From: Minisyncoccota bacterium
GTDB lineage: Bacteria; Patescibacteriota; Minisyncoccia; Phycocordibacterales; CAIZLB01
Direction: 5' to 3'
DNA length: 60,567 nt
Assembly: GCA_031973395.1 (NCBI GenBank)
Contig: DALYDD010000004.1
Span: forward strand, 447 to 61,013
Below the pieces are notes generated by a model. It saw only the letters and a program-made list of their open reading frames with translations. It made no database searches and had not been told where the DNA came from. A program made the translations under genes and the position numbers. Below are positions 7,183 to 47,047 of this stretch, in pieces (the first letter of the stretch is position 1; each line of letters opens with the position of its first letter).

Positions 7183-7204
7183 TTGCTTTGCTGTTATCAA
7201 TACT

Positions 7205-31800: not shown

Positions 31801-33657
31801 TCGACAACCGATCTCACGTTTACGACTACTGCTGCACCAGATGTCACTCCGCCTGCGGTTGAGCTCACTGCACCTGCGGCAAGTGCATTGGTGACAGGGT
31901 CTTCGGTTACATTAACCGCATCCTCTTCTGATGGTGTCGGTGTAGCGGGAGTTAAATTCTACGTCGACAATACATTGATCCAGTCAGAAGACACCTCTTT
32001 CCCTTATACGTTGAGTTGGGATAGTACATCAGTTGCGAGTGGTACAAGGATATTAATTGCTGTTGCTCGAGATTCTGCCGGCAACCAAGCAACTTCTTCA
32101 CCGGTATCTGTGACTGTAGACAATGCTGTGCCGGTGATCTCGAATATCGCAAGTTCTTCTGCGCAGACGACCGCATCAATCAGTTTCACTACAAATGAAA
32201 ACACTACGGTCCGTGTAAACTACGGTCTGACCAGTGGCTATGGATCAAGTACGGCATTTACATCTACTGCAAGTACGACACATACAGTGGCGCTAACTGG
32301 TTTGAATCAAAATACTGCATATCATTTCCAAATTGAAGTAAGAGACGCTGTTCCGTTTACTGCTACGTCTACAGATCGTATTTTGACCACTACACCCGAT
32401 GTGACAGCTCCTGTAATTAGTACAATAGGCGCTGTCGCTGCGAATACATCTGGAACTATTTCTTGGGTCACAGACGAAGCCGCTTCTTCCCAGGTCACAT
32501 ATGGATTACTTAGTAGATACGATCAAATCACTGCAAAAACTGATACTTCACCACGTGTTACTGATCATAGTGTCTCGATCACAGGATTATCTTCTTGTGC
32601 CGTTTATTCGTACAAAGTTATTTCTCAAGATACTGCTGGCAATACTTCGACTTCTTCTGCTACGGAATTTGTTACAACTGGTTGTACTGGCGGTGCAGCG
32701 GCAGGTGCGAATGAAGAACAGCAAATTGCAACTTCTACCGGAGGTAATGTAGAACTTATCCAGGGGGGTGAGGGAATAGGGCTTAATATCCCGGCTGGAT
32801 TTTCTTCAACTTCGAGCTCAACAGTATTCCAGATCTTGCAGGTAAATGCAGCGGCCGTAGCAAATGGTGGTGGTGCCCCAGCTCCGGGTATGGCTCCTGT
32901 TGATACGTATATGTTTAGACTTAATGCGTTGACTGCGATTAATACGGTAATCACATCATTTGATGCAGAGATCACCATCACTATTACATATTCAGATGCA
33001 GATGTTGCTGGATTCGATGAGAGTACGCTCAAGATGTATCGCTACGATGGATCATCGTGGCATGAACTTGATGACTGTGTATTGAATACCACTTTGAATA
33101 CGATTACCTGTACTACGACTCGATTCTCTGATTTTGGAATGTTTGGAATTCCTATACCGGGAAATAGTGGATCTGCTCCAGTAACCGTGGCTCCAGGCAG
33201 TGTGGCCTTCACAACAGGTACAAGCGGAGGATTATTGGCCATCAACCAAAATGCATTAGGCTGTCAAAATGGTGCGATATTCAATGTCTATAGTGGCCAA
33301 CGATGCCCAAGTTCTATCGGTTCAGTGCCAACGGGTACAAATTCTGGAAATAATACTTCGGGTAATTTCCCAAATATTCCAGCCAATTTCTCTTTCACAA
33401 AATTATTAACACCTGGAATGACTCATCCTGATATCTTGCACCTCCAGCGAGTGTTGAATGCAGATAAGACTACAAGGGTAGCTATAAAGGGTATAGGTTC
33501 GCAAGGTAAAGAAATCGATTATTTTGGTCCAGGGACAAAACAGGCGGTAATCAAATTCCAGATTAAATATGGTGTCATCAAGAATGCAAAAGATCCATAT
33601 GCAGGTACGACAGGTCCTGGTACGCGGGCTGCGCTCAATAGACTATTGAGGAAGTAG
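25834..33657 (+). CDS. giant surface protein: TM anchor, metallophosphoesterase-like domain, DNRLRE-type modules, many Fn3 repeats, DUF2341/LamG-like region, Ig-like domain, C-terminal peptidoglycan-binding domain
   Basis: 2607 aa. GNHE/GHTH phosphoesterase motifs. Repeated (T/S)WTT(N/D)E..S...YG...Y Fn3 units. WWNASWGKRIPVTFDN...DIRFVD resembles DUF2341. The C-terminal LQRVLN...GPGTKQAVIKFQ resembles PG_binding_1. The start codon is uncertain (TTG at 25834, with ATGs shortly downstream). Confidence 0.8.
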   Translation: MSKKRYNMYYMIPIPGMPAPEHGHGFSAQNFPKKQFSAKKIAGVILFGLVAILGILQIHKQVSAIATTIAVMSDGGGSTAQQMIDDLDQILLQKLSGWNIDAVGWNGDIGYDTLGSGTSSVAFAVGAYDSSTAGVAGIPLFLAEGNHEAENAADVLRLRQMYTRYQGYATSSVHGPLGWNFSQMPNAYSSTTNYAYDIGDIRVIVVNQYAATTSDAVNTTGRVHEQVFEWIKSEIKKTTKQHIAVMAHEPAYPVPSQVSGNHIGDSLDADPANRDKFVNLLASYGQINHFVGHTHIADLYEMKNTTAGVNGDARTTTTSLDGGIWELDSGGFGDKAPGGGGQHTYPGIGYLHTNSANWGDYTLMLVYGEGSPQWAAPTSETVGISNLTRQILVNTWQGAGTGTSSNGLFDMSYYVDYTDAVAANPDWSANNSGKWWEPAFSTTTAGWTSGELGVGYRTDAAAPQWINKPIDAFGGLATTTPQVYSIMQRIVFPATTTSSYGNMTLHLDDDDGVMVWLNGTLILNSTNASVTAPTTGSGAEYFDKVQTNTSNGWVGTSISPTFSTVDISAFKGSLVNGQNTLVVWNINGGSSTSTDLGVAVRLSISGAVDAIAPNISSVASTTPTVNTATVSWTTNESSDSQVEYGLTSTYTASTTLDTNMVTSHSVNISGLATSTTYHFRVISKDASANRTNSTDYTFTTPASTPSAATTTLREGQNGYTGMTDTYLNASSTYTNNGTATTMLIDGAAPFANGLMKWDVSSIPSNATIQSVSISYNVTNNSGANTYTIYKSTQNWVENETNWASSSVSVPWGLPGSLDNSDDYVDTSLGTLGTASIAPATSTLNAAGIAVVQGWVSGSTPNQGFFISRTSTADIDGLQFDSSEAATVGNRPGLTIVYNLPSGPDITAPVVSAVASSTTASAATITWTTNEAATSTIDFGTTSGYGTASSSATATTSHRIVISGLASSTLYHYRISVWDTSGNLATTSDLTFTTTAPDTTAPSIVGNVASSTTSSSGTITWTTDEAASSRVVYGTSTGTYTASSTSATATTSHSHVLSGLLGSTPYYFRVVSTDASLNTSTSSEMIFTTSGGATTVSLREGQNSYSGMVDTYLDSAAVTTNQGTNVIVAIDGSPALTGLMKWDLSSIPSSATVSDVKLVYNVTNITANTYNIYRSLRAWTEGGATWNTYDGTNSWGTVGGLNATSDYNSTSLGTVGVNSLGLATTTLNASGITLVQGWVDGSITNNGFTLHQSASTDSVQFDSSEGLTTALRPALVVTYSTGGPDTTPPVISSVASSTTETTSTITWNTDESATTAMVYGTVSGTLGTASSSASTGTTHSLVLTGLAPATTYYFRVVSTDGSANTATSSEFSFRTVTPEATSTAWWNASWGKRIPVTFDNVGHAENLTNFPVRVVLNSSRITYGDFKANGDDIRFVDADGATVLQYEIENWDTASTSNIWVKVPQVNSASSNDFIYMYYNNPAASAAATTTGVWDSNYKGVWHLGQNPAGTAPQMLDSTINAKHATTAGSMTADQRVLGQSGFAVNLTGNDYLSMGALGAMAGGRTVSMWINGNSWTRTDTGDNALFAFNTSAGGNTDIVRISTAGSIGHYNGTTVVPASSSVAIATGGWHHISIVSSSTANASLIYQDGVLVGTAATWAPAVGATDVFFAGQEIDTTTASDFFNGKQDEIRVESAARTAKWIQAQFETQEDSFITYGSAESGADTTPPVISSIASSTATSTASITWSTNEVATSTVQYGLTTSYGSQATSSGTTTHSVSLSSLTPNTLYHYRVTAIDASTNLSTSTDITFTTTAITDTTPPVISDIASSTSTSTASITWSTDEAATSTVQYGLTTSYGSQATSSGTSTHSVSLSSLTPNTLYHYRVTAIDSSTNTSTSSDRTFTTTALPDTTAPTISAVASTTGVTTATITYTTNEAASSTIDYGLTTGYGSQATSSGTTSHSVSLSGLTSSTLYHYRITATDSSGNASSTTDLTFTTTAAPDVTPPAVELTAPAASALVTGSSVTLTASSSDGVGVAGVKFYVDNTLIQSEDTSFPYTLSWDSTSVASGTRILIAVARDSAGNQATSSPVSVTVDNAVPVISNIASSSAQTTASISFTTNENTTVRVNYGLTSGYGSSTAFTSTASTTHTVALTGLNQNTAYHFQIEVRDAVPFTATSTDRILTTTPDVTAPVISTIGAVAANTSGTISWVTDEAASSQVTYGLLSRYDQITAKTDTSPRVTDHSVSITGLSSCAVYSYKVISQDTAGNTSTSSATEFVTTGCTGGAAAGANEEQQIATSTGGNVELIQGGEGIGLNIPAGFSSTSSSTVFQILQVNAAAVANGGGAPAPGMAPVDTYMFRLNALTAINTVITSFDAEITITITYSDADVAGFDESTLKMYRYDGSSWHELDDCVLNTTLNTITCTTTRFSDFGMFGIPIPGNSGSAPVTVAPGSVAFTTGTSGGLLAINQNALGCQNGAIFNVYSGQRCPSSIGSVPTGTNSGNNTSGNFPNIPANFSFTKLLTPGMTHPDILHLQRVLNADKTTRVAIKGIGSQGKEIDYFGPGTKQAVIKFQIKYGVIKNAKDPYAGTTGPGTRAALNRLLRK
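31012..31850 (+). repeat. three tandem ~280-nt Fn3-coding units inside the giant gene
   Basis: Units start near 31012, 31291 and 31570. Units 1 and 2 share a 62-nt perfectly identical block (31087-31148 = 31366-31427). Confidence 0.8.
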
Positions 33658-33659
33658 TT

Positions 33660-34943
33660 TTACTTACTAAAACTTAAATTACCTTGAGCTTTAATTTGAT
33701 CAAAACCAGAGCAAGGGATACCAGGTTGTCCATCTTTAACTTGTAGTAATGCAACAAGGCCAATCATCGATGCATTGTCTGTTGCCAAAACAGCTTCTGG
33801 GATTAATAGAGGGATATTGAGTTCCCTGCATAGGTTTTTGAAATTCTCTCTTATGAAATGATTGGAGATGACGCCTCCGCCGATGATGAGACTTTTTGAG
33901 CCTTGCTCCAAGATTGCCTTTTTGGTCTTTGATAAGAGGACCTCTATAACTGATTGCTCAAACTCTGCAGCGAGATCTTCTTTTTGATTTTGGCTGAGGG
34001 GTTCATCGTTTTGTGTTTTTATTCTATCTCTCACTGCATAGAGGGCTGCTGTTTTTAATCCTGAAAAGGAGAAATTTAAATCCTTTGAGTGAATCATTGG
34101 ACGCGGGAGAGTGAATTCTCTCGAAACCCCTTCTTTGTCTATGGTACTTCGAAAACTATCAGCAAGTTTTGAAATTTCTGGTCCGCCAGGATAGGGGAGT
34201 CCTAAAAGTCTTGCCACCTTGTCATATGCTTCACCGACAGCATCGTCTACGGTCTGGCCAATTAGAGTGTATGCATGCCATGAATCTATGCTTACAAGTT
34301 CCGTATGTCCACCTGAGATAAGCAGTGCGATAGCTGGAAAATCTATGCCCGCAGGCTCTAAATTGCCTGTAGAGGCCAGTACTGATGCAATATGCCCTTC
34401 CATATGATTGATGGGGAAAAGGGGTAAATCGAACGCTATGCCTAAGGCTTTTGCAGCTGAGATACCTACCCATAGTGCAGGTTCAAGGCCAGGTCCGTAT
34501 GTTACTGCGATACCAGCCAAGCTTTCTTTTATATGGGCAAAGTCAGCCGGAGAAATACTCAATAAATATGAGACGAGGTCGGGTCCGAGGTCGTGCTCTT
34601 TCTGTAGAATATATTTTATTTTTTCAATCGTTTCAGTGGAAAGGTTTGGATTTTGCTCAATGAGGTTTTCATCTTTGTTTTCAGAATCAGGATTCGGAGG
34701 AAGGGGGACATTGAATGCTTGATTCAGGCAAAGAGATAAAACCGGCACAAAGTTTTTGCCATGTTCTCGCTTTGCAAGATTTGGGAAGACGCCGCCAAAT
34801 TCTGCGTGCAATTTTGCCTGGGAATGGACTTGGTGACTCAGAATATTTAGCGCATTGGTGTTGGAATTTTGGGCCACGACGGAACAGGCTGTCTCATCAC
34901 AGCTTGTTTCAATGGCCAAAATTGATGTCTTCTGTCCGGGCAT
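33660..34943 (-). CDS. tsaD: tRNA N6-adenosine threonylcarbamoyltransferase TsaD (Kae1/Gcp family) with an internal insertion
   Basis: ILAIETSCDETACSVV, VTYGPGLEPALWVG, INHMEGH, GGVISN. The start is set at MPGQKTS. An extra ~65 aa lies between the first two conserved blocks. Confidence 0.85.
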   Translation of the reverse strand: MPGQKTSILAIETSCDETACSVVAQNSNTNALNILSHQVHSQAKLHAEFGGVFPNLAKREHGKNFVPVLSLCLNQAFNVPLPPNPDSENKDENLIEQNPNLSTETIEKIKYILQKEHDLGPDLVSYLLSISPADFAHIKESLAGIAVTYGPGLEPALWVGISAAKALGIAFDLPLFPINHMEGHIASVLASTGNLEPAGIDFPAIALLISGGHTELVSIDSWHAYTLIGQTVDDAVGEAYDKVARLLGLPYPGGPEISKLADSFRSTIDKEGVSREFTLPRPMIHSKDLNFSFSGLKTAALYAVRDRIKTQNDEPLSQNQKEDLAAEFEQSVIEVLLSKTKKAILEQGSKSLIIGGGVISNHFIRENFKNLCRELNIPLLIPEAVLATDNASMIGLVALLQVKDGQPGIPCSGFDQIKAQGNLSFSK

Positions 34944-34974
34944 TTTCAGTGAATTAAGTGATATTATATATACC

Positions 34975-36204
34975 ATGAACTCAAAGAAAGCGATACTTCT
35001 CATCGTCCTTACTATCCTCGTGCTTGGGGCAATAATATATGGATTGCACGTATATCAGATAAAGACCGATGAAGATTTCGATGTATTGATTCGAGACGCG
35101 AATACTCAGTTAATTGATCATTCATCATCAGGTTCGTCTACCTCCTCGGCTCTTGATGATGAAGATGGTGCCATTTCTCTTGGCGTTGCATCCTCAACTC
35201 CAAAAAAGTCAGATTTTAAAGATGTAAAAATTAATAGTTCGGCACTTAAGGCCAATTCGCCAAAGACATTTATTGTGGCTTTTTTCGGTGATCAAGGTGT
35301 AGCCAATCCCGCACATCGGGTTCTTGAATTAGTAAAAAAAGAAAATGCAGATGCTGCTGTTTTGTTAGGGGATTATGATTATGTAGATGATCCGAAGGCT
35401 TGGATGACTTTGATTGAGGGGGAATTGGGGAATGACTTTCCGATTATTCCTGTCATAGGCAATCATGATGAGAAAAAATGGAAAGAATACAGTGTATTGC
35501 TTACGGAACATTTGAAACGTACTCCTCAGGTCTTATGTGAAGGGGAATTGGCGGTGAAGGCACAGTGCACATTCAAGCGACTCCGGGTATTTGTAGTTGC
35601 GCCAGGGATAAATAGCATTCCGGTATCAAGCGATCTATACTCTGACTTCATCAATTCTGCTTCTTTGAAATTAAAAAATACATATGCGACACTGAGCGCA
35701 GCTGATGCTAATCCACTCGATACTTATTGGAATGTGTGTGCATGGCATAAAAATCAGAGATCGATGCAGGTTGGAGGTAAGGCAGATGAAACTGGTTGGG
35801 ATACATATAATACCTGTTTGAATCTCGGATTTCCGATCATTACCGCACATGAGCATTCATATTCGAGAAGTTTTTTGATGAAAAATCTCCAGAGGCAAGA
35901 ATTGGCAGAAAAGAAAACTGTATCACTGGCTTCGAGTTCGGCTATTTCTTCTCCTTTGAATATTGATGATCTGCGCATTATGCCCGGGCAAACTTTTGTC
36001 ACGGTCTCGGGGCTCGGAGGGCATAGTATTCGGGCACAATATCTCAATAATTCTTGGTGGTCTACTGTATATACATCGAATCAAGGCGCGAAACCAGGGG
36101 CATTATTCTGTGCATTTAATTACCAAGGTGATAATGGACAGACGCTCTGTTATTTCAAAAATATTGATGAGGAGGTGGTGGATGCGTTTATGATAAAGAA
36201 GTAG
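34975..36204 (+). CDS. calcineurin-like metallophosphoesterase, membrane-anchored
   Basis: TM segment, then FFGDQG, LLGDYDY, GNHD and AHEHSY motifs. Confidence 0.7.
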   Translation: MNSKKAILLIVLTILVLGAIIYGLHVYQIKTDEDFDVLIRDANTQLIDHSSSGSSTSSALDDEDGAISLGVASSTPKKSDFKDVKINSSALKANSPKTFIVAFFGDQGVANPAHRVLELVKKENADAAVLLGDYDYVDDPKAWMTLIEGELGNDFPIIPVIGNHDEKKWKEYSVLLTEHLKRTPQVLCEGELAVKAQCTFKRLRVFVVAPGINSIPVSSDLYSDFINSASLKLKNTYATLSAADANPLDTYWNVCAWHKNQRSMQVGGKADETGWDTYNTCLNLGFPIITAHEHSYSRSFLMKNLQRQELAEKKTVSLASSSAISSPLNIDDLRIMPGQTFVTVSGLGGHSIRAQYLNNSWWSTVYTSNQGAKPGALFCAFNYQGDNGQTLCYFKNIDEEVVDAFMIKK

Positions 36205-36232: not shown

Positions 36233-36916
36233 CTAACGAGTTATCTCAATAAAATCATCGGCACCTTCCTCTAGTTTTAAGTATTTTTTCTTGACGATCG
36301 GCGGGTTGCTTCCATAATCTGTGATGGTATTTATATAGTATTGTTCACCGCTCTCTGTAGGTTGATCAGTTGGAGTGTAAAAATTTTGATATTCACGCAC
36401 AGAGAGTTCCCACCCACCGTCTGTAAATGTATACAATTCTTTTAAGAAGATATCACCTAGTCCACGACCTTTTGAACCATTGGTAAGTATGCGTTTTTCG
36501 GTATCTACGGTCACATAACCCAACACTGGATATTCGGGGCCGTATGCTATGTCTGAACTGATTTCATACTGTTCAAAATCTCGTGTATCTGGATTTTGAA
36601 CATAAAACTCAGTACCTACATTATAAGCTCCAATCAATATCTGCATTTGAATATCCTCTAACCCGTCAAAATTGATATCAACTTTTGATAGTTCTGTCAC
36701 TGGCGCGATATAATTAGTTTCAATCTTTGTCACATATCCATCTGTGTATGTAACTGTAAGGCTAATTGGTTTTTCTTCAGTATCGGAATCTGCATCTTCG
36801 GTTACTGTAAATGTATGTGACACATCGTTTTTCTTAGTATTGTTCTTGGTATAAGAGATATAGAACAAGCCGGTCAGTATAAGAACAACGAGAACGGCTA
36901 AGAGTATTTTTTTCAT
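36233..36916 (-). CDS. membrane-anchored hypothetical protein
   Basis: 227 aa with an N-terminal TM segment. No motif recognised. Confidence 0.5.
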   Translation of the reverse strand: MKKILLAVLVVLILTGLFYISYTKNNTKKNDVSHTFTVTEDADSDTEEKPISLTVTYTDGYVTKIETNYIAPVTELSKVDINFDGLEDIQMQILIGAYNVGTEFYVQNPDTRDFEQYEISSDIAYGPEYPVLGYVTVDTEKRILTNGSKGRGLGDIFLKELYTFTDGGWELSVREYQNFYTPTDQPTESGEQYYINTITDYGSNPPIVKKKYLKLEEGADDFIEITR

Positions 36917-37111
36917 ATAGTCTATATTGTACAGCTTGTAGAATTGGATTCAATGGCACTAAGCCTTTATATATCTGCAGCAATCCTCAGAGTCTTCAAG
37001 ACATGCTCATACTCTGCCGGCGAAATTGAAACTCTATCAATAGTGGTAGTAGTGAAATGTGCCTGTAGATGATAGGTGCCTCCAAAGGAAGCTTCTAGTG
37101 CTAGCTCTAAA

Positions 37112-37278
37112 TGGTGACCCTGCGGAGAGTTGGTCCTTACAGGACCAGTACAGGTTTCCCATTTTCTCAAATTTGATTCTAATTTCGGCTTCGCCTATGG
37201 GAATAAAATTATCGAAAATATGGGAGAACCTTTTCGACTCTCCGCCGCGAGCCAAGCAGTTGGCTCGCTTAGGGTCAC
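37112..37278 (-). ncRNA. tRNA-trailer structured RNA module, copy C (Glu-type, ends in ACCA)
   Basis: The minus strand reads GTGACCC-TA-[GCGAGCCAA-CTGC-TTGGCTCGC]-CGGAGAGT-CGAAAA-[GGTTCTCCC...GGGAAACC]-TGTACT-[GGTCC-TGTAA-GGACC]-A-ACTCTCCG-CA-GGGTCAC-CA. Confidence 0.65.
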
Positions 37279-37328
37279 ACTCGCAAAACAAAAACCACCT
37301 TTCGGTGGGTTTTGCTCGTGTGACCCCA
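37272..37328 (-). terminator. terminator hairpin originally abutting tRNA-Glu (now separated from it by the island)
   Basis: GGGTCACACGAGCAAAAC-CCACC-GAAA-GGTGG-TTTTTGTTTTGCGAGTGTGACCC. Confidence 0.6.
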
Positions 37329-37364
37329 TTGTACCTTAATTGGAACACTTTAGAGAACGCAATC

Positions 37365-37661
37365 TTATCTTGGAAGTCGTTTAGACTTTCGCGTTCTTTT
37401 GATATAAATCAATCCTAAAATGGCAAAAATGATTGCTAATACGGATAAGAAAGTGTGATTATTGAAAAAAGCATATACTCCATTGATCACGCAATACCTG
37501 CTTGTGCAAGGTTGCGAAAGCTCAATAAAAGAGTTGTGTCCGGAAATCTGATCTCCGATCCATATCGCAGCAATTGCAAACCCATACAGTGCAACTATCA
37601 TTGAAAACAACCATGCGATTCCACCAATGAAATAGCTGATGATTTTTATGTTTTTTGTCAT
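37365..37661 (-). CDS. small polytopic membrane protein (island)
   Basis: 98 aa, 3 predicted TM segments, basic tail. Confidence 0.45.
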   Translation of the reverse strand: MTKNIKIISYFIGGIAWLFSMIVALYGFAIAAIWIGDQISGHNSFIELSQPCTSRYCVINGVYAFFNNHTFLSVLAIIFAILGLIYIKRTRKSKRLPR

Positions 37662-37758
37662 TGTGAACCCATTGCGTGGCTTTCAGAACTTACTAAACAG
37701 AGGGATTATATCGTCTCTGCCATTCAGAACCTTGGCTCGCTTATGGTTTCGTAAATCT

Positions 37759-38343
37759 CTATTCTGTTAATGTAACTTCTATAAAATCATTTTTTTGTTC
37801 GGGGTGTTTTATATAGTACCTAAAAGACTTATAGGGCGACTTACCTTTACCTTTGAAATAGGTATAAAATTGCGGTCGGTATGATGTGTCATCTCCTCTT
37901 TGGTCGATTGACTCAATCCACTCAAAAGGTATCACACCTGTCATTAAGATATTTGATGATGTGTCGTTACTATCTTGAGGTTTCTTACTGAAAGAAGTGT
38001 CGCCTATACGATATGCGGATATGACCTCACAAAAAAACTCGACGCCAGCAAAATGATAACCTTTAATTTCTGCCCCTAGATAGGTATATCCGTGTCTATT
38101 TTCTGTATTGCTTGTAGGATAGTGGCTATCGTATTTCTTTATGTTGATTAGTTCTATCTTGCTACTTATTCCATTTCGGACCTTATATACAAGCTCATCA
38201 ACAATCTTTTGAATTGCCTCACGCCTAGTAAAACGTTCCCTGAATGACTGTTGTTTGGAAAGACTATAAACGTGATAGGCAACGAAAGTACCGATGACAA
38301 TTCCTACGACACTGATAATTGTATTTATAATTTCAATACTCAT
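37759..38343 (-). CDS. membrane-anchored hypothetical protein (island, last gene of the idi operon)
   Basis: 194 aa with an N-terminal TM segment (IINTIISVVGIVIGTFVAYHVY) and a soluble domain with no recognised motif. Confidence 0.5.
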   Translation of the reverse strand: MSIEIINTIISVVGIVIGTFVAYHVYSLSKQQSFRERFTRREAIQKIVDELVYKVRNGISSKIELINIKKYDSHYPTSNTENRHGYTYLGAEIKGYHFAGVEFFCEVISAYRIGDTSFSKKPQDSNDTSSNILMTGVIPFEWIESIDQRGDDTSYRPQFYTYFKGKGKSPYKSFRYYIKHPEQKNDFIEVTLTE

Positions 38344-38351
38344 ATAGGTAG

Positions 38352-38374
38352 GTTCACAACGTTCACTTGTTCAT
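38352..38374. promoter_or_regulatory. triple direct repeat GTTCAC-N3-GTTCAC-N2-GTTCAT immediately upstream of the 194-aa gene
   Basis: The same triplet array recurs at 40342-40365 and partially at 40222-40237. Inverted units occur at 40370-40392. Confidence 0.5.
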
Positions 38375-38375
38375 C

Positions 38376-39668
38376 CTAGCTCTTGGCCCAAACTGAAGAT
38401 AACCTATCTTTTTCATTATCAAGCCAAGTTATCATTTCTTTTGTACGCTTATTTACCAAAGATTGCTGTGGACGAATTTTCGTATCAAATTTAATTGAAA
38501 GCAATTTAACATATCTATTACCTTTTACTAAACTCACAACTAAATCTTCAAGAAAGCTTTTACTTTCAGATGGTTCAAATTCTTTCAGTGCTTCAAGTGC
38601 AATATAAGCGTAGGCTGTGGCGTCTACTAGAGCAAGCTTAATGTAGTCACCCTTTACCATCATCTCTCTCATCTTCTCTTGCCATTCCTGTTCTGATTTA
38701 TGCTTATAAAAATCTTCAAGAAGTGAAATGTGCTCATTGTTCTTGTTATTAAGCAGGATTTGAATTGGCCACGTAAGTCTCTCGTTTTTTATATCAATAA
38801 ATACATCTTCAGATACCTTCTCACGTGTAGGCGAATTATTTCCAGTCAAGTCTAGTGCGAAGTCTTGAATATCGTTTACCACCATCATCAACATACCATA
38901 GCAGAAAGCATACCTCGTTAATTGCTTCAATGTGTTGTTTTCAACCTTTTCAGAAAAAAGAGATGTGAGAATAGTAGGAAATCGCTCAATCATATAAGCA
39001 TTTAAACCGTAAGTGCGTTTCCAAACAAATTCCGCAATACTTGAAGCGTCTATTTTCACACCCTCTTTTAGTTCATTTTCCACTAGTTTTAGCTCTGGCT
39101 TTAAAATTTGAGCATCTAACTTTCTATCTTCTGAAATAGTAAGTGGTAGGAGATTATTCTTATTGAAATTATTATACACATTAAAGAGTGTATCGAATGT
39201 TTGACCTAGATATATACCTCTGTATATCTCTTCAGTAAATAATATAAGTTTTTCCTTTTGTTCATTGTTTAGCAATGTTGTTTCATTGATAAAATCAGAA
39301 TGACAGTCTCTTAAAAAAGTAGCCGTTTTAAAAGCCGTTATTTTTTTATCTCCAATATATCCAGACTTTCCATCTGCCCCGACATTATAACAATATGCTT
39401 GTATCATATTTAATTCCAAAGATGCACATAGAAAGTAAAATGCTTCACCAGTCTCTATGTTTAAAATATGTGCAATAAGATATAAGAAATGAGCTCGTGA
39501 ACTTTGCTTTGATGCAATTTTATCAAGAGCAAATTCTTTCAACATTAGGGCGACATCTTTATCTTCACATAACAGAGATTTATTTGTTAGAAACGAATTA
39601 AGAAACGGAAAATAACTTGCGTGTATTTCCTTCATCTGCTGAAACCTTTTTTCTGTTCTATCTAACAT
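38376..39668 (-). CDS. polyprenyl synthase/terpene synthase-fold protein with degenerate Asp-rich motifs (island)
   Basis: 430 aa. ASLELNMIQAYCYNVGAD occupies the place of the first DDxxD. YLGQTFD. FCYGMLMMVVNDIQDFALDLTG aligns with GxxFQxxDDxLDxTG. DIKNERLTWPI aligns with D(l)xxGKxTlP. Confidence 0.55.
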   Translation of the reverse strand: MLDRTEKRFQQMKEIHASYFPFLNSFLTNKSLLCEDKDVALMLKEFALDKIASKQSSRAHFLYLIAHILNIETGEAFYFLCASLELNMIQAYCYNVGADGKSGYIGDKKITAFKTATFLRDCHSDFINETTLLNNEQKEKLILFTEEIYRGIYLGQTFDTLFNVYNNFNKNNLLPLTISEDRKLDAQILKPELKLVENELKEGVKIDASSIAEFVWKRTYGLNAYMIERFPTILTSLFSEKVENNTLKQLTRYAFCYGMLMMVVNDIQDFALDLTGNNSPTREKVSEDVFIDIKNERLTWPIQILLNNKNNEHISLLEDFYKHKSEQEWQEKMREMMVKGDYIKLALVDATAYAYIALEALKEFEPSESKSFLEDLVVSLVKGNRYVKLLSIKFDTKIRPQQSLVNKRTKEMITWLDNEKDRLSSVWAKS

Positions 39669-40176
39669 TGTTGAGAAAGGTTTGGTTATTCATAATAATT
39701 TTCAACCATTCTGTATAGAGGGTAGGATTATTCTCAATATCTTTCTTAAGCTCTGCAATTTTAATCCATTTATATTCTGATACCTCTTCAAAATTTGGAT
39801 GTGGCTCTTCATCACTGTTACCAATAAAGACGTGGTCAAACTCATTTTCAACTAGACCATTTTCTAATTCAACTTTATACATAAAAGTAAACAATTCTTC
39901 CAAATCACAATCAATCCCCATTTCTTCTTGAAGTCTTCTGTGAATTGCCACTCTCAAATTTTCGTTTTCTTTAGGATGACTACAGCACGTATTACTCCAT
40001 AAACCACCAGAATGATATTTAGCGGGATTTCTTCTTTGTAGGAGAAGTTCAGTATTTTTATTAAATATAAAAATAGAAAATGCCTCGTGGAGAACACCAG
40101 ATTTATGTGCTTCCAGTTTTTCAACTGTGCCTATCCTGTTTCCTTCTTTATCTACTAGATTTATTAAGTCACCCAT
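39658..40176 (-). CDS. idi: isopentenyl-diphosphate delta-isomerase, type 1 (Nudix fold) (island)
   Basis: 172 aa, collinear with E. coli Idi. EAH..GVLHEAFS supplies the His ligands. WSNTCCSHP supplies the catalytic Cys and a His. ENEFDHVF is the E-x-E motif. EVSEYKWI is also present. Confidence 0.85.
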   Translation of the reverse strand: MGDLINLVDKEGNRIGTVEKLEAHKSGVLHEAFSIFIFNKNTELLLQRRNPAKYHSGGLWSNTCCSHPKENENLRVAIHRRLQEEMGIDCDLEELFTFMYKVELENGLVENEFDHVFIGNSDEEPHPNFEEVSEYKWIKIAELKKDIENNPTLYTEWLKIIMNNQTFLNNVR

Positions 40177-40221
40177 AATTATTTGACCATAATATCAAAA
40201 ATTTCTCAAAACATCTAGACA

Positions 40222-40393
40222 TTCACGACGTTCACACTTGAGAAATAATTTGCACAAAAAAGTAGCTCTTTTTCGACTAATTTCGCCTAATTTATATCAA
40301 GACAACCCGAACCCTTTATAAAACTCTGTTTTTATTGTAAAGTTCACAATGTTCACCACGTTCATTTTTGTGAACGTGTGTACGATGTGAATG
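40222..40393. promoter_or_regulatory. divergent control region of the island with GTTCAC iteron-like repeats
   Basis: ATTCACGACGTTCAC lies at 40222-40236. GTTCAC occurs at 40342 and 40351, and GTTCAT at 40360, on a 9-nt period. The palindrome CACGTTCA-N5-TGAACGTG lies at 40357-40377. GTGAAT overlaps the ATG at 40391. Confidence 0.5.
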
Positions 40394-41791
40394 TATATGA
40401 AATTGAGTGGTAATGACAAAAAAATACTAGAGACACTTTTCAATATGCGAGGCGGTTATGTCTTGGATTTTTCCGATAGACGGATGACGGAGTTTTTCAA
40501 GGAAGAATTTGGGATAAATATCTATGATGAGAAATACGACTTTGATTTTCCAAGTAAATCCAAGGCTAACCGTTTGCGTGGTATCTGGCTCAAAGAGGAT
40601 GTGTTGGTTGTGGGACAGATAATCCTATCCCTCGTGGACTACTATGAGACAAGTCTTCTTGTTGAGAATAAAGAGATACCACAGAATACCAAAGACCTTA
40701 TTCAAAAAGGACGTGAAATTGGTGCAAGATTGCTTTTCAATGAAATGGCGAGAGGCAATGAACCGATAGTCAAAGCTATTACTGACAAGACAGCCCTCAT
40801 CAGAAACTTCAATTCTATTGATTACAAAGCTCTCAAAACCAATGAGAAAATATACTTATTGAAGGTCCTGTATTCATATTACGAAGCCATCATACGAACA
40901 TACTACGGCTCTGGTTTATTTTTCTTAACCTCTGGCATTGATGACCTGAATGACTACTTCAAAGTACTACGAAAAAGGATAATAGAAATTATCGCTTCAG
41001 ATGACACGTTTTTGGATATAAAGAACAGCCACGCCTACACGCAAATTATCGAACCTATCACAAGCCTGTATGTGAGTGCCGAGTTTTTGGACGCTATTTG
41101 GGATGATGCAATACTCCCTTCGATTATCAATATGCGTGAAGATATTGCTGATAAGGACCTATTTGAAAATCAGTCTGAAGTACACCAAGAGACAGGTATA
41201 GGATTACCACTTTTCCTTGAAGCGATTAAAAGAGAAATGGAAAAGATGAAAAAATATCTGGACCAGAGGACAAAAAGCTTTTATGCTACTGACTTACCGA
41301 AACATAAAGAGGTTTTTGAAAAAGCTTCTGGCGAGCCGAAAAAAGATGATGTCATAAAGCACGAACACACCCATCTTTTCAAAAATAGTATCCAAGAGAA
41401 AGAGATAGTCCTAAACCACAAGTTCGAGGATGGTAAACCAAGCACTAACTACATCACTAAAAAGGGCGATGATTTCTACTATAAAGGTCTTCATATTCTC
41501 GCCAACAAGAAAAATAATGATTACTACAAGGTATTTTCTGCTCTGTACGCAAAACTTCCCGATGGTGGTGAAATATCATACAAAGACCTTATTTCTGAAA
41601 TAAAAAGCCGTATGTCTGACCAAAAGAATAAGACAGATGATGAGATGCAGAAGTTTATTCAAAGAAACCTTACCGATAGAGGTAACGGCTTTATGAGATA
41701 CGCAAACATACCAGAGACAGAAGACAACGGAAAGCCACTTATCTCTGTCATTCGTGGCACTGGAGTAGTGTTCAATAACAAAACAGGCTAG
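40391..41791 (+). CDS. hypothetical protein (island)
   Basis: 466 aa, helical and charged. No motif recognised. Confidence 0.5.
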   Translation: MYMKLSGNDKKILETLFNMRGGYVLDFSDRRMTEFFKEEFGINIYDEKYDFDFPSKSKANRLRGIWLKEDVLVVGQIILSLVDYYETSLLVENKEIPQNTKDLIQKGREIGARLLFNEMARGNEPIVKAITDKTALIRNFNSIDYKALKTNEKIYLLKVLYSYYEAIIRTYYGSGLFFLTSGIDDLNDYFKVLRKRIIEIIASDDTFLDIKNSHAYTQIIEPITSLYVSAEFLDAIWDDAILPSIINMREDIADKDLFENQSEVHQETGIGLPLFLEAIKREMEKMKKYLDQRTKSFYATDLPKHKEVFEKASGEPKKDDVIKHEHTHLFKNSIQEKEIVLNHKFEDGKPSTNYITKKGDDFYYKGLHILANKKNNDYYKVFSALYAKLPDGGEISYKDLISEIKSRMSDQKNKTDDEMQKFIQRNLTDRGNGFMRYANIPETEDNGKPLISVIRGTGVVFNNKTG

Positions 41792-41965
41792 TTCCTGACT
41801 TTTCCTGAAAAATAATTATAGACTGTCCCGAAACACCCTTGAAATACGGGGTGTTTTTCTATTTACAGGAAATCAAATGAAATACGCAGAACATTCTCAA
41901 AAGGCAAAAATTGGTATGTAGCTTTTCTTGGCGGAAGTACACATATCAATAAAACACCAATATAA

Positions 41966-42253
41966 ATGTTTATGAAAAAACACATAGCAGAAGTTCCTCT
42001 CGACGATTATAAGAACTATTACTACTCAAACGACATTGATGTCGCATCGGTACTCGTGTGCAAGGGATACACGCTCGAAGATGTGGTCCCCATCTCAAAC
42101 AATAAGGCGACTTTTGTCTTCAAAAATCATCCTGCCATCACCGATGCAGTTGATGGATTTTGGAGTAACCGAATTGAGGTCCATCCTCTTGAATTTGCCA
42201 ACGCTCGCAAGAACCTGAAGTCTCGCATTTTTGGTATGCGAAAAGATTACTAA
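41966..42253 (+). CDS. small hypothetical protein (island)
   Basis: 95 aa. The pattern LVCKGYTLEDV...ATFVF...AI..FW......V.PLEF..A.K.LKSRI resembles small phage/plasmid-associated proteins. The assignment is tentative. Confidence 0.45.
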   Translation: MFMKKHIAEVPLDDYKNYYYSNDIDVASVLVCKGYTLEDVVPISNNKATFVFKNHPAITDAVDGFWSNRIEVHPLEFANARKNLKSRIFGMRKDY

Positions 42254-42265
42254 CCACTAATAAAA

Positions 42266-43642
42266 ATGTATATGCAAAACAATGAAGAAAAAATAATAAA
42301 GCCAATACTAAAAACTGCCATCTTCACCACAGATACTCTCTACGAAATGGTTTTTGACCGCAATGCAAACAAGACATCTTTCACCAAAATAAACCGTGAT
42401 GGAACGATTGAATATCTCCTCGAAGAAGTTGATATTGATGGTAGAAAATACAAACCACTTCCACCAACTTACAACCTCGTAGACAAAGACGTGATACTTT
42501 TCCCATCCGTTGCTACCGAGTATCAAAGTGAGGAAGAAATACTCAAAGAGATACAGACCTTCATACACAAATACCTAGACATCTCTGAAGTGTTCGAACA
42601 GATAGCCACTTATTATGTCCTCTTTACTTGGATGTTTGATAAGTTCAACGAGGTCCCATATCTCCGTGCCATAGGCGACTTTGGTAGCGGTAAATCTCGC
42701 TTTATTCAAGCTATAGGCATCCTATGCTACAAACCTGTGTTTACGGGCGGTGCGACTACTCCTAGCCCCATATTTCGCATTGTAAACGAGGTACACGGCA
42801 CACTTATCATTGATGAAGCCGACTTCAAGTTCTCTGATATGACCTCTGAAATCGTAAAGATTTTGAACACTGGATACCAGAGAGGTATGCCAGTCTTGAG
42901 GTCCGAAGGCAAAGGTACTTTTGAGGTAAAAGCGTATGACGTTTTCTGTCCGAAGATAGTCGCTACTCGTGAGACATTTTCTGATAAGGCACTTGAAAGC
43001 CGATTTCTCGTCGAAGAAATGGGTGCAGGAAAACTGCGTGCAGATATTCCAAGAACACTCGATGAGAGCTTTTACAAAGAAGCTGAACTCATCAGAAATA
43101 AGCTTTTGATGTGGCGATTGAAAAACTACTTTGAGCCTATCGAGCGAAGACACGACCTCATCGAAGGTATACATCCTCGCCTCAATCAGATAGTGATGCC
43201 ATTGCTTTCAATTATCAAAGACGAAGCGATACGTGAGCACCTCAAAACATTCATCGTGAAATACAATACAGACCTTGTAGCTGACCGAGGACTTTCTTGG
43301 GAAAGCGACATCGTGTTTGCGGTACTAAAACTTGAATACGAATTGAAGGTCCACGAAATTACCGTCAAACAGATAACTGATGAAGTAAACAAGGAAATCG
43401 ACATCACTGACGACACACTACAAGCTCGAAAAGTCGGATGGTATCTACGTTCAAAGTTACAGCTCAAACCATACAAAACACGAAAAGGTTTTGTGCTCTC
43501 CTTCAAGGAAAATAAAAAGCGACTTGATATGTGGAAAGAACGCTTCGGCATAACCGATGCGGATATTCGAGGTGAACAAGTGAATGTCGTGAACGATACC
43601 AAAACAGTAGATGCACCAACGGCTGAAGAGCTTGGATTTTAA
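42266..43642 (+). CDS. P-loop NTPase, putative replication initiator/helicase-like protein (island)
   Basis: Walker A DFGSGKSRF and Walker B LIIDEADF, with arginine-containing downstream motifs. Its size and context suggest an element replication protein. Confidence 0.55.
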   Translation: MYMQNNEEKIIKPILKTAIFTTDTLYEMVFDRNANKTSFTKINRDGTIEYLLEEVDIDGRKYKPLPPTYNLVDKDVILFPSVATEYQSEEEILKEIQTFIHKYLDISEVFEQIATYYVLFTWMFDKFNEVPYLRAIGDFGSGKSRFIQAIGILCYKPVFTGGATTPSPIFRIVNEVHGTLIIDEADFKFSDMTSEIVKILNTGYQRGMPVLRSEGKGTFEVKAYDVFCPKIVATRETFSDKALESRFLVEEMGAGKLRADIPRTLDESFYKEAELIRNKLLMWRLKNYFEPIERRHDLIEGIHPRLNQIVMPLLSIIKDEAIREHLKTFIVKYNTDLVADRGLSWESDIVFAVLKLEYELKVHEITVKQITDEVNKEIDITDDTLQARKVGWYLRSKLQLKPYKTRKGFVLSFKENKKRLDMWKERFGITDADIRGEQVNVVNDTKTVDAPTAEELGF

Positions 43643-43662
43643 TCATTAACTAAGTCAAAACA

Positions 43663-43920
43663 ATGGAAGAAAAAATCATATTCGAGACTGGCTATACAGA
43701 AGACGAGATACAAAGCTTCTCTGAAGCAAATTATGGGCGTGAGCTGACAGAAATTGAGATACACAGAATGAGAGACTATTTGTGGGATGACGATGATGTG
43801 TCTTGGGCACGAATAGAACTGATGGCAAAAGCAATCGAGGCGGTAATGGATAACGAAGGCAACCAATGGAAATCGGTAGACGAAGATTATCAATCTAATT
43901 CAAAACAAAATGAGCGATAA
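43663..43920 (+). CDS. small acidic hypothetical protein (island)
   Basis: 85 aa, very acidic. Overlaps the next gene by 11 nt. Confidence 0.4.
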   Translation: MEEKIIFETGYTEDEIQSFSEANYGRELTEIEIHRMRDYLWDDDDVSWARIELMAKAIEAVMDNEGNQWKSVDEDYQSNSKQNER

Positions 43921-44416
43921 AAGTGGTCCAAAAACAGACGAAGGAAAAGCTGTATCAAAATACAATGCCATAAAGCACGGCTTGCTTACCAAAGAAGTCC
44001 TTGTTGATGCTGACGAAGTGAATGACCTTAATCAACTCAAGGAAGCGTTATACGAAGCCCTAGACCCTGTAGGTCCAATGGAAAACCTACTCGTGGACCG
44101 CATTATCTCAAACGCTTGGAGACTGCGAAGAGCTATCCAAGTCGAGACCAAAACTATGGAGTGGTATCAGAACGATTTTGACTTTTTCCCTGTAGGACAA
44201 AGCGAAGAACAGCAAGCACGAAAAAGCGTAAAGAATATGTTGAGCAATGACAGTGTAGACACCATCCTTCGCTACGAAACTACCATCGAACGAAGCCTCT
44301 TTCGAGCACTCCACGAACTAGAACGTTTACAGGCAAAAAGGAACGGAAAAGATGTCCAAGTTCCTGCCGTGGTCGATGTAAATCTCGATAGTTCGTTTCG
44401 CAAAAATGAACTGTAA
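43910..44416 (+). CDS. hypothetical protein (island)
   Basis: 168 aa, helical. No motif recognised. Confidence 0.45.
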   Translation: MSDKSGPKTDEGKAVSKYNAIKHGLLTKEVLVDADEVNDLNQLKEALYEALDPVGPMENLLVDRIISNAWRLRRAIQVETKTMEWYQNDFDFFPVGQSEEQQARKSVKNMLSNDSVDTILRYETTIERSLFRALHELERLQAKRNGKDVQVPAVVDVNLDSSFRKNEL

Positions 44417-44459
44417 AAACGGTTAAACCCTATTGATTTCGGACACTTAACAAACCTTT

Positions 44460-45077
44460 ATGAGCAAATCAGAAGCTGACTGGTGCAAGAAAATAGAAAT
44501 ATGGTGGTTACTTCGAGACATAAAAGAAAAAGGTGGCTACAAATACACTACCATATCTTGGGGTGAAGACGGCTCTCGTGGAAGTATATCGGTCCAAGTA
44601 TCTGTATGCGATGAAGAAAAATACGCTCGCTTTATCTACACCCAAATAGACAACTCTACAGGTGAAAAGAAGGACTATGACTATAAGGTCCCGATAATCG
44701 AAACTCCCTGTCATTTTGGCGGTACTCGATACTGGTTCAAGTGCAATCTCTACAAGAATAATCAGTATTGCGGACGACGTGTCGGTGTCCTCTATAAAGA
44801 TGGAAACTGGTTCGGATGCCGACATTGCTACGAACTTACCTACGCCTCAAGAAAAGTGAATAAGCGATACAAACACTATCCGATGTTTCGGGTCCTTGAG
44901 ATTGATGCAGAAATCGAAAAGCTTGAACAAAAAGCGAAGCGTTATACCTACAAAGGCGTACCCACAAAAAGACGACAAAAACTAGTGAAACTCTATCAAG
45001 AAGCATCTCGCAATTATCGTGCATTTTCTGACACAGAAAAGGGTCTTAACGTGCACAAAAAAGGTCGAAGATTTTAG
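44460..45077 (+). CDS. Cys-rich (zinc-ribbon-like) hypothetical protein (island)
   Basis: 205 aa. CHFGG...C...C and C..C spacing. Basic C-terminus. Confidence 0.45.
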   Translation: MSKSEADWCKKIEIWWLLRDIKEKGGYKYTTISWGEDGSRGSISVQVSVCDEEKYARFIYTQIDNSTGEKKDYDYKVPIIETPCHFGGTRYWFKCNLYKNNQYCGRRVGVLYKDGNWFGCRHCYELTYASRKVNKRYKHYPMFRVLEIDAEIEKLEQKAKRYTYKGVPTKRRQKLVKLYQEASRNYRAFSDTEKGLNVHKKGRRF

Positions 45078-45091
45078 CAAAAAATGATATT

Positions 45092-45328
45092 ATGAACTCA
45101 TTACACGAAAGCCAAAATAATACCCTCACGGTTGAGAATACTGGAAAGCTTTTGTGTGATGAGAAGGCATCTGTAGTTCTCTCAAAGGACACACTCAATG
45201 CTCTTGAAGAGCTTGGCGATGTATTGAGAGGTATTCATAAAAGGATGGTATTTGAAGGATACGAAATTGTGGATGGAAACATTCGCAAACTAGTGCCTCA
45301 AAATGTAAATGTATATGAAAAAGTCTAG
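45092..45328 (+). CDS. small hypothetical protein overlapping the recombinase start (possible accessory/directionality factor)
   Basis: 78 aa. Its 3' end overlaps the recombinase gene by 20 nt. The function is inferred from position only. Confidence 0.35.
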   Translation: MNSLHESQNNTLTVENTGKLLCDEKASVVLSKDTLNALEELGDVLRGIHKRMVFEGYEIVDGNIRKLVPQNVNVYEKV

Positions 45329-47036: not shown

Positions 47037-47047
47037 ACGATAGGGCC
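46976..47047 (-). tRNA. tRNA-Glu(UUC): tRNA-Glu (anticodon UUC)
   Basis: GGCCCTATCGTCTATCGGTTAGGACATCGCCTTTTCAAGGCGAGAAGCGGAGTTCGACTCTCCGTAGGGTCA forms a canonical 72-nt cloverleaf. Confidence 0.9.

Follow-up and report, generated by a model that had tools for sequence, protein, structure and literature searches.

Coupling of a type-1 isopentenyl-diphosphate isomerase gene to a gene for a prenyl-synthase-fold protein with asparagine-led motifs on an integrative element of Paceibacteria

Textbooks identify trans-prenyl synthases by two aspartate-rich motifs, and the locus described here raises the question of what such a protein does when asparagine leads both motifs and the RRG loop appears to be changed as well. 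The locus lies in a 60,567-nucleotide stretch of DNA from a Minisyncoccota bacterium (contig DALYDD010000004.1 of GenBank assembly GCA_031973395.1, positions 447 to 61,013), which is referred to below as the window. Three minus-strand open reading frames (ORFs) at 37759–40176 encode an isopentenyl-diphosphate isomerase (Idi), a synthase-like protein of 430 amino acids (430 aa), and a 194-aa membrane protein. An initial annotation, made from the letters of the DNA, described these genes as an operon borne on a genomic island; the ORFs, the 11-nt overlap of the first two, the motifs NVGAD and NDIQDFALD, and the GTTCAC repeats that it listed were all found where it had placed them. We lean, if only slightly, towards the interpretation that the locus is a mobile cargo cassette in which a real Idi is coupled to a Mg-dependent prenyl-diphosphate enzyme of an atypical clade.

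The 172-aa product is, as judged from its sequence, a bona fide type-1 isopentenyl-diphosphate isomerase. In searches with hidden Markov models (HMMs) it scored 167.9 against the NCBIfam equivalog NF002995 (cut-off 127), 122.1 against the equivalog TIGR02150 (cut-off 105.8), and 74.2 against the NUDIX domain PF00293 (cut-off 21.1), and it aligned end to end with structures of E. coli Idi (1i9a). Residues H24, H30, C65, H67, E85, Y100, E110 and E112 correspond to E. coli His25, His32, Cys67, His69, Glu87, Tyr104, Glu114 and Glu116, and include the motifs C65-x-H67 and E110-x-E112. From the literature on structures 1hzt and 1nfs, we take the metal ligands of the E. coli enzyme to be His25, His32, His69, Glu114 and Glu116, and its catalytic residues to be Cys67/Glu116, Tyr104 and Glu87. 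Compared to E. coli Idi (PDB 1i9a/1hzt), the protein is alike in length, NUDIX fold, HMM scores and all metal and catalytic residues, differing only in the location of its gene on an island and in the translational coupling of that gene to the one downstream. With both equivalog cut-offs passed and every catalytic and metal residue aligned, the earlier description of an intact type-1 isomerase is upheld.

The 430-aa protein gave a PF00348 match of 23.7 bits, below the gathering threshold of 27 and restricted to profile positions 153–241 of 251 (the C-terminal half), along with weak matches to hexa- and heptaprenyl synthase models. An AlphaFold2 model for which nine close homologues served as input had a predicted local distance difference test score (pLDDT) of 84 and a predicted template-modelling score (pTM) of 0.88. 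When the model was compared to the PDB with Foldseek, all 50 of the 50 matches listed were trans-prenyl synthases, with target-normalised template-modelling scores of 0.62–0.78 over approximately 390 columns. No terpene-synthase or UbiA match was found in Pfam, and no cyclase was present among the 50 Foldseek matches listed. We are confident in predicting that the protein has the all-alpha fold of a trans-isoprenyl-diphosphate synthase (trans-IPPS). It contains no hydrophobic segment (the highest hydropathy over 19 residues is 1.32), indicating that it is soluble.

Profile-to-PDB alignment was used to place the residues of the protein in register with the known motifs. R58 corresponds to the region-I Arg (GKRxR), E85 to the conserved Glu ten residues before the first aspartate-rich motif (FARM), N95/V96/D99 to D1/D2/D5 of DDxxD, R218-T219 to the K-T pair, N265-D266-x-x-D269 to the second aspartate-rich motif (SARM), and K284 and D292 to the GK...D that follows the SARM. 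The FARM position reads N95-V-G-A-D99-G-K101-S-G-Y-I-G, with the invariant K101 two residues beyond D99, and the SARM position reads N265-D-I-Q-D269-F-A-L-D273; the protein contains no DD dipeptide. In the model, helix 75–99 ends at the first motif and helix 244–272 at the second, after which there is a low-confidence loop, and the secondary structure thus agrees with the profile register. A loop after the second-motif helix is also found in real prenyl synthases. At the site for isopentenyl diphosphate (IPP), weak N-terminal alignment and the model helix ends indicate that R58 is retained, that the residue at −7 of the FARM is Met, and that the RRG position is Y-I-G. This assignment of an altered IPP site is moderately supported.

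The two asparagines cannot be attributed to sequencing noise because N95 and N265 are invariant in nine close homologues and in all but one of the approximately 150 representatives that span the motifs. A word-indexed search of 5.8 billion clusters recovered the nine close relatives (52–100% identity), and when 1.84 billion representatives were searched exhaustively with a profile, 158 proteins were recovered at E ≤ 0.001. We aligned 149 retrievable profile matches and the close family to the family profile, giving a clade of at least approximately 150 clusters at 50% identity. Every clade sequence that covers the first motif has E..Y..NxxxD, with a K after it in each one except P0089, and every sequence that covers the second has NDxxD except P0075, which has D at the leading position. 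Near-invariant residues are R58, E85, Y92, R218 (rarely K), K284 and D292; across the clade M/L/V/I takes the place of Q/H at −7 of the first motif, and the position aligned with RRG is Y-(I/V)-G. D273, which completes NDxxDxxxD, is invariant in the closer tier only and is not conserved in the wider clade. The consistency of the asparagine motifs among the profile matches indicates that a distinct clade, here called N/N, was retrieved rather than ordinary synthases. We conclude that the 430-aa protein descends from trans-IPPS and belongs to a motif-defined clade within the isoprenoid-synthase fold, in this case mobile and coupled to Idi. Members were found by genome and metagenome scans in Patescibacteria, in DPANN archaea (Nano-, Woese- and Pacearchaeota), in Bacteroidota/Saprospiraceae, and in a few other metagenome-assembled genomes (MAGs); in the metagenome scan, pattern set A2 gave 29 loci and the narrower A1 patterns gave none that was confirmed. 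Ten clade representatives searched against Pfam and ten against NCBIfam matched no family-specific model, the former giving marginal PF00348 matches and the latter long-chain synthase matches below cut-off. Since no curated model exists, annotation pipelines miss the clade or label its members as generic polyprenyl synthetases. In the open-access literature we found no description of the clade, of NDxxD prenyl enzymes in DPANN or candidate phyla radiation (CPR) bacteria, or of CPR terpene clusters, nor any report in open-access text of a characterised protein with the same combination of motifs.

The model, the Foldseek matches and the clade alignment bear out the earlier assignment of a prenyl-synthase fold with both aspartate-rich motifs altered. 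The initial annotation also placed the protein closer to the NSE/DTE triad of terpene cyclases, and this part did not stand. The 1-5-9 spacing of NSE/DTE is present in N-D-[I]-x-D-x-x-x-D on the equivalent helix, but the likeness ends there: a helix-D DDxxD is absent, positions 5 and 9 are both D instead of S/T/G and E (a triad of N/D/D, not N/S/E), the ninth position is the D273 that varies across the clade, and the nearest relatives of the protein, by sequence as by fold, are long-chain trans-IPPS. With long-chain trans-IPPS (3aqb_B HexPS, 3mzv DPPS, 3wjk OPPS and 9kp1_B HepPS) the protein shares the fold over about 390 collinear columns, the E before motif 1, the region-I Arg, GQxxD, the basic-Thr pair, the motif-2 helix and the K...D beyond it. 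Unlike these enzymes, it has NxxxD-x-K in place of DDxx(xx)D...RRG as motif 1 and NDxxD as motif 2, and it is approximately 100 residues longer due to an insert at about 160–215 and a conserved C-terminal extension. It departs from PF00348 in three respects, the gathering score, the FARM (DDxx(xx)D plus RRG) and the SARM (DDxxD). The sequence NDIQDFALD also fits the NDxxDxxxD of UbiA prenyltransferases, and NVGAD resembles their DxxxD with Asn for the first Asp; UbiA proteins are, however, polytopic membrane proteins with the opposite order of motifs, and with neither a transmembrane segment nor a UbiA Pfam match in the 430-aa protein the likeness is one of analogy, not of membership.

Substitutions of this kind have been described in other enzymes. 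In isoprenyl diphosphate synthases (IDS), Mg A and C are ligands of the leading Asp in the FARM, and Mg B is bound by the leading Asp in the SARM (PMC7484799). Replacement of the first SARM Asp by Asn was suggested to be important for the evolution of irregular, non-head-to-tail coupling, and an NDxxD SARM is present in scale-insect proteins resembling farnesyl diphosphate (FPP) synthase (PMC10960109). Fungal IDS-like terpene synthases have an Asn-first second motif, and the D250N/N254S substitutions of geranylgeranyl diphosphate (GGPP) synthase, derived from comparison with them, shift the SARM towards an NDxxSxxxE triad (PMC7484799). Changes in the IPP-binding motifs, among them Arg to an aromatic residue at RRG, serve to recognise IDS-derived terpene synthases of insects (PMC10108439), and UbiA prenyltransferases bind Mg-diphosphate through NDxxDxxxD and DxxxD (PMC7839719). 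Since Asn is used both in the NSE motif of terpene cyclases and in the NDxxD of UbiA, it is an accepted Mg ligand in enzymes that ionise prenyl diphosphates. The 430-aa protein shares with IDS-derived non-elongating enzymes (chrysanthemyl-type enzymes, Coccoidea FPP-synthase-like proteins, and insect and fungal terpene synthases) the fold, the Asn-first SARM and, in the register adopted here, apparent substitutions at IPP contacts that include an aromatic residue for the RRG Arg. These enzymes are all eukaryotic and the Coccoidea proteins keep a canonical FARM, whereas in the N/N clade the FARM is also altered and the members are prokaryotic, from two domains; homology between the two groups is at the general level of the IPPS superfamily only.

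Nine distinct loci (designated by L numbers where they must be told apart) hold a close homologue of the 430-aa protein, and in five of them Idi is encoded immediately upstream: the window, L005 (85% identity), L027 (79%), L028 (77%) and L002/L010 (54%). In the window the end of idi and the start of the synthase-like gene share 11 nt (39658–39668), and this ATG...TAG overlap is kept in all five. Because the overlap is identical in every Idi-bearing locus, there is strong evidence, at the level of sequence, that the two genes form a real, translationally coupled functional pair.

We propose the following scheme for the pair. Idi would equilibrate scavenged IPP with dimethylallyl diphosphate (DMAPP), and the 430-aa enzyme would act downstream of Idi, on DMAPP or on a short prenyl diphosphate formed from scavenged precursors. 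The allylic diphosphate would be bound via Mg2+ on N95/D99 and N265/D269 (plus D273) and then ionised, with K101, R218 and K284 expected to contact the diphosphate. The carbocation would most likely not be captured by IPP in the regular way; possible outcomes are irregular DMAPP–DMAPP coupling, quenching or cyclisation of the terpene-synthase type, or transfer to a non-isoprenoid nucleophile, and we make no choice among them. Because the residues that hold IPP appear to be changed, ordinary head-to-tail elongation is probably not carried out, and the changes in both motifs and the apparent ones at RRG and at the Q/H position, with one Asp left in the first motif and the allylic-site residues kept, likewise point away from regular elongation. 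By analogy with the IPP-binding-motif rule of PMC10108439, the changed IPP site would mark a non-elongating IDS-derived enzyme. We put non-elongating catalysis by the 430-aa enzyme a little short of an even prospect.

Several observations weigh against this interpretation. The register of the N-terminal half relies on HMM segments of 3.9–4.9 bits and on the model helix ends, and an hhalign comparison of the family to E. coli IspA (in an approximate sequence) aligned just the C-terminal half. Four of the nine close loci (L001, L004, L029 and L030/31, the last with just 80–177 nt of upstream sequence) have no adjacent Idi, and members of the wider clade have quite different partners, Idi being adjacent once only (L049); Idi is thus not intrinsic to the function of the family. 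The combination of idi with a prenyl-synthase gene also looks like a plain module for the supply of FPP or GGPP. In addition, an Asp-to-Asn mutant in the SARM of an insect IDS lost irregular activity, and D166N, a mutant at the first FARM position, had much lower regular activity (PMC10960109), so that the 430-aa protein could have little activity of its own or could bind a ligand as a pseudoenzyme.

The mutant data lead to a reading in which the protein is a catalytically dead binder of prenyl diphosphates that serves as a sensor, regulator or scaffold. Three canonical Asp residues have been lost, as in mutants that deprive real IDS of most of their activity, and in DPANN the related proteins either carry an additional N-terminal domain of approximately 300 aa or are encoded divergently beside a tandem AsnC-type winged helix-turn-helix (wHTH) protein (10 loci), as would suit a role in regulation. 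We nevertheless consider a dead binder improbable. In bacteria and archaea alike, the set of polar residues (N, D, D, K, R, D) is kept with strict invariance, as expected of a working metal/diphosphate site and not of the non-catalytic small or partner subunits HepS, HexA, GPPS-SSU and PDSS2; no canonical synthase gene that could be its partner is adjacent in any of the nine close loci; Asn is a normal Mg ligand in the NSE motif of terpene cyclases and the NDxxD motif of UbiA; and translational coupling to Idi suggests metabolic flux.

The lipid metabolism of the host bears on a second alternative. The named sequences most similar to the window's FtsZ, at up to 81% identity, come from MAGs of Parcubacteria, Pacebacteria, Paceibacterota or Patescibacteria, so that assignment to a CPR host (Paceibacteria), as first proposed, holds. 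A homologue of the lipid II flippase MurJ is encoded at 3241–5019 (219 bits). MurJ flips lipid II, and its presence in the window indicates that the host uses polyprenyl-phosphate carriers. Paceibacteria are reported to have a C10–C20 module and to lack C5 synthesis (PMC9166423); an imported Idi would therefore plausibly be useful, and the 430-aa enzyme would plausibly be an add-on rather than a replacement. The view that CPR bacteria lack isoprenoid autonomy is thus to be qualified, given the reported C10–C20 module of Paceibacteria and the use of a polyprenyl carrier.

Against this background the pair could be an ordinary supply module, in which Idi and a divergent but regular synthase make FPP, GGPP or longer products for the undecaprenyl carrier cycle, and from which a precursor-scavenging CPR cell would gain a more complete pathway. 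The placement of idi beside a trans-IPPS gene is a classical pairing, the closest relatives in sequence and fold are hexa- to decaprenyl synthases, R58, GQxxD, (K/R)-T, K284 and D292 are retained, and the host has the lipid II pathway and a reported need for C5 units. Such a role is not easily reconciled with the Pfam score below threshold, the loss of the leading Asp from both motifs, the single Asp left in the FARM, and the apparent replacement of the RRG and Q/H positions. The gene is also rare and patchy, with nine close homologues in 5.8 billion clusters, it occurs on islands beside tRNA and tmRNA genes instead of at core positions, and the typical C10–C20 module is already reported from Paceibacteria. 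We regard the supply module as unlikely, though far from negligible.

In three loci, namely L005, L027 and the window, the pair is followed by the 194-aa gene. Homologues of this gene form 24 clusters and are present on many more contigs than the synthase-like gene. It also stands alone (L006–L009), for example after uvrB in a Pacebacteria MAG and, elsewhere, beside a Y1 transposase and a Fic gene. The trio proposed by the initial annotation is therefore recurrent without being obligate, since the 194-aa gene is widespread on its own and Idi is not always present beside the synthase-like gene, and we consider the 194-aa gene a separable accessory rather than an obligate partner of the pair. 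The predicted model of its product (pLDDT 86) comprises one hydrophobic N-terminal helix (residues 1–28, with the transmembrane helix at about 3–30), a basic juxtamembrane helix and a beta-rich domain. The Arg/Lys cluster after the transmembrane helix suggests, by the positive-inside rule, that the globular domain faces the cytoplasm. No Foldseek/PDB match was obtained below E 0.8 and a profile/PDB search was also empty, in agreement with the earlier description of a membrane-anchored protein without a known fold. A match to VTT_dom was dismissed, as it scored 20 bits against a cut-off of 33.9 and spanned the transmembrane helix only.

Repeated sites connect the 194-aa gene to the idi operon. 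The 32-nt spacer 5' of the 194-aa gene carries GTTCAC-N3-GTTCAC-N2-GTTCAT (38352–38373), and the control region upstream of idi has GTGAAY-N3-GTGAAY sites at 40221–40235, 40342–40365 and 40378–40392. The window contains 8 copies of GTGAAY-N3-GTGAAY where 1.33 would be expected, which exceeds chance, and seven of the eight are within the island. The control region is strongly conserved in L005 and L027, and the TGAACAAGTGAACGTTGTGAAC repeat is kept at the equivalent position in both. In all three trio loci, sites precede idi and also lie immediately before the 194-aa gene, and they are absent upstream of the stand-alone copies of that gene. Because the idi operon and the 194-aa gene both carry these sites, they are probably co-regulated in this lineage of the element.

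Shared operator-like repeats would also be consistent with a three-gene conflict system for anti-phage defence or exclusion, in which an isoprenoid metabolite is made or depleted and the 194-aa protein is the membrane effector. The cassette lies on a mobile element, its neighbours in L005 include PemK, AbiEii, a DNA methylase and an SNF2 helicase, and stand-alone copies of the 194-aa gene occur near HicA and Fic genes. The synthase-like and 194-aa genes, however, mostly occur apart, and no sensor or nuclease-type component was found. PADLOC-DB 2.0 gave only a generic NUDIX match for Idi (PDC-S07, E 1e-6) and none for the other nine island proteins, and searches of PHROGs, IMG/VR, phages and plasmids were empty. 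A defence system, one of the functions first suggested, thus appears very improbable. For the 430-aa protein in particular, no relatives were found in IMG/VR, GenBank phages or PLSDB plasmids, and an origin from phage or plasmid was rejected; BFVD yielded weak giant-virus prenyltransferases only.

The trio lies on a tRNA-targeting integrative element with a serine recombinase (Table 1). This is supported by the recombinase beside the tRNA-Glu gene, the direct repeat of the tRNA end at the far border and the low GC, which differs from that of the flanks, and the same features support the earlier call of an island. The 16-nt tRNA-Glu end has 2 matches in the window against 0.02 expected, and these bracket an element of approximately 9.9 kb (about 37115–46991), of which the trio cassette is the most AT-rich part. 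Close homologues of the synthase-like gene adjoin a tmRNA gene in L001 (9326–9704, with smpB beyond) and tRNA-Gln genes in L002 (7261–7332) and L004 (5598–5669). Such sites are typical insertion points of islands and suggest repeated mobilisation.

Table 1. Positions, strands and base composition (GC) of features in and around the integrative element
Feature	Position	Strand	GC	Basis or remark
idi, 172 aa	39658–40176	−	0.326	ORF list, HMM matches, alignment to E. coli Idi
Synthase-like gene, 430 aa, soluble product, NxxxDK/NDxxD clade	38376–39668	−	0.329	Profiles, predicted model, Foldseek
194-aa membrane-anchored protein gene	37759–38343	−	0.359	Model, homologue search
TGAACAAGTGAACGTTGTGAAC repeat, operator-like	38352–38373	−		Directly 5' of 194-aa gene
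Divergent intergenic control region	40177–40390	.		Three to four GTGAAY-N3-GTGAAY sites
466-aa protein gene, divergent from idi	40391–41791	+		Copy with 89% identity in L005
98-aa multi-pass membrane ORF inside island	37365–37661	−		No family match; absent from L005
DUF5659 protein, 95 aa	41966–42253	+		Island backbone
P-loop protein, 458 aa (GDFGSGKS ... LIIDEAD)	42266–43642	+		Island backbone; one weak viral relative
Large serine recombinase/integrase	45309–47036	+		Abuts tRNA-Glu
tRNA-Glu(UUC), integration target	46975–47047	−		3' end 46976–46991 is right boundary repeat
Left boundary repeat TGACCCTGCGGAGAGT	37115–37130	.		tRNA-Glu 3'-end copy with one mismatch
Backbone genes			0.39–0.44	
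Flanks			0.43	

Additional features were noted at the borders and within the element. A strongly folding non-coding stretch at 36967–37340 (GC 0.45; z = −6.2 for the minimum free energy) crosses the left island border and holds the tRNA-Glu 3'-end sequence in both orientations, as TGACCCTGCGGAGAGT at 37115–37130 and as TTCGACTCTCCG...TAGGGTCACA at 37233–37281, the latter interrupted by a GCGAGCCAA/TTGGCTCGC hairpin. At about 985–1027 in L027, a perfect 19-bp palindrome of the tRNA-Glu end, GTGACCCTACCGGGAGTCG-CCC-CGACTCCCGGTAGGGTCAC, lies directly upstream of the idi promoter region. The left-border stretch may be a recombinase attachment site with dyad symmetry. Its tRNA-like arms raised the possibility of a tmRNA or an intron-bearing tRNA, which was rejected as ARAGORN and both modes of Rfam search were empty and the stretch is unlike the tmRNA of L001. 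The 22-nt repeat found before the 194-aa gene has a second copy, TGAACAAGTGAAYGTYGTGAAC, at 43573–43594 (+). This copy is located in the P-loop gene (458 aa), within its 3' end, reads in the sense direction of the plus-strand genes and precedes the next ORFs; it may serve the element as an internal control site. The plus-strand island genes also have in common a motif of approximately 15–21 nt, AATGTAAATGTATATGAAAAA, across their start codons (40385–40402, 41959–41979, 42259–42279 and 45302–45322, also 36806–36820), as a result of which four island proteins start M-Y/F-M-K/Q; it may represent a shared translation-initiation or promoter context of the element. The 466-aa neighbour had no match in Pfam, NCBIfam, PHROGs, PADLOC or PDB. 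In L005 (4354–13487), the trio and the 466-aa gene are followed by genes for a PemK toxin, a methyltransferase, AbiEii, PRiA4_ORF3, an N6/N4 DNA methylase and an SNF2-type helicase, an accessory region rich in defence and addiction functions that differs from the island backbone of the window.

Other gene neighbourhoods are conserved among distant members of the N/N clade. In Bacteroidota/Saprospiraceae and metagenome loci (L016, L020–L024, L053 and L055–L058, from the distant tier), the synthase-like gene (418–527 aa) is followed in the same direction by an ORF of approximately 1030–1100 aa and, wherever the contig is long enough, by a third ORF of about 300–337 aa that starts MxxKRVMIIVWKW..DL. 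This three-gene operon is conserved in at least 11 loci; neither partner matches Pfam, and the 1030–1100-aa partner is also without a PDB sequence match. At 10 archaeal-type loci (L017, L018, L036, L044 and L046–L051), a protein of approximately 320 aa is encoded beside the N/N gene, mostly divergently upstream; it has two AsnC-type wHTH domains and faint matches to the Lrp/AsnC ligand domain, and in one case resembles the siroheme decarboxylase NirDL. In Nanoarchaeota (L011 and L014), the synthase-like domain is fused to an unrelated N-terminal domain of approximately 300 aa, giving proteins of about 735 aa. A wHTH in this N-terminal domain was considered and dismissed, there being just hints at E = 0.17–0.2 and no similarity to the AsnC-type neighbour.

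Outside the island, the window encodes an apparent metal-homeostasis set consisting of a nicotianamine-synthase-family protein (7040–7984), a YibE/F membrane protein (8501–9703) and a ZIP transporter (9714–10475), with a HupE/UreJ protein further on (24466–25302). A 2607-aa ORF at 25834–33657 combines a calcineurin-like phosphoesterase with eight purple-acid-phosphatase N-terminal (Fn3-like) repeats, DUF2341 and fn3, and resembles the giant surface proteins that are common in CPR. A further metallophosphoesterase ORF is located at 34855–36204.

The N/N clade is concentrated in ultra-small symbionts (CPR and DPANN) and Bacteroidota. More speculatively, and in our view rather doubtfully, the NxxxDK/NDxxD proteins may constitute an unrecognised bacterial and archaeal family that has left IPP elongation, one whose enzyme Paceibacteria have mobilised together with Idi on small integrative elements so as to make, from host-scavenged IPP, a specialised product that the 194-aa protein might handle at the membrane. 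The altered reaction in such a family could be irregular coupling, formation of hemi- or monoterpenes, or prenylation of a non-isoprenoid acceptor. The cassette shows that genes for Idi and a putative prenyl-diphosphate enzyme travel on integrative elements among genomes thought to scavenge C5 units. The clade and its remodelled site should be of relevance to terpene enzymologists, and the mobile cassette to biologists of the CPR. If the 430-aa enzyme is merely an odd FPP/GGPP synthase, the motif rules by which such enzymes are recognised need widening; if it makes a specialised terpenoid or prenylated product, it would represent a rare case of secondary or interaction chemistry in the CPR.

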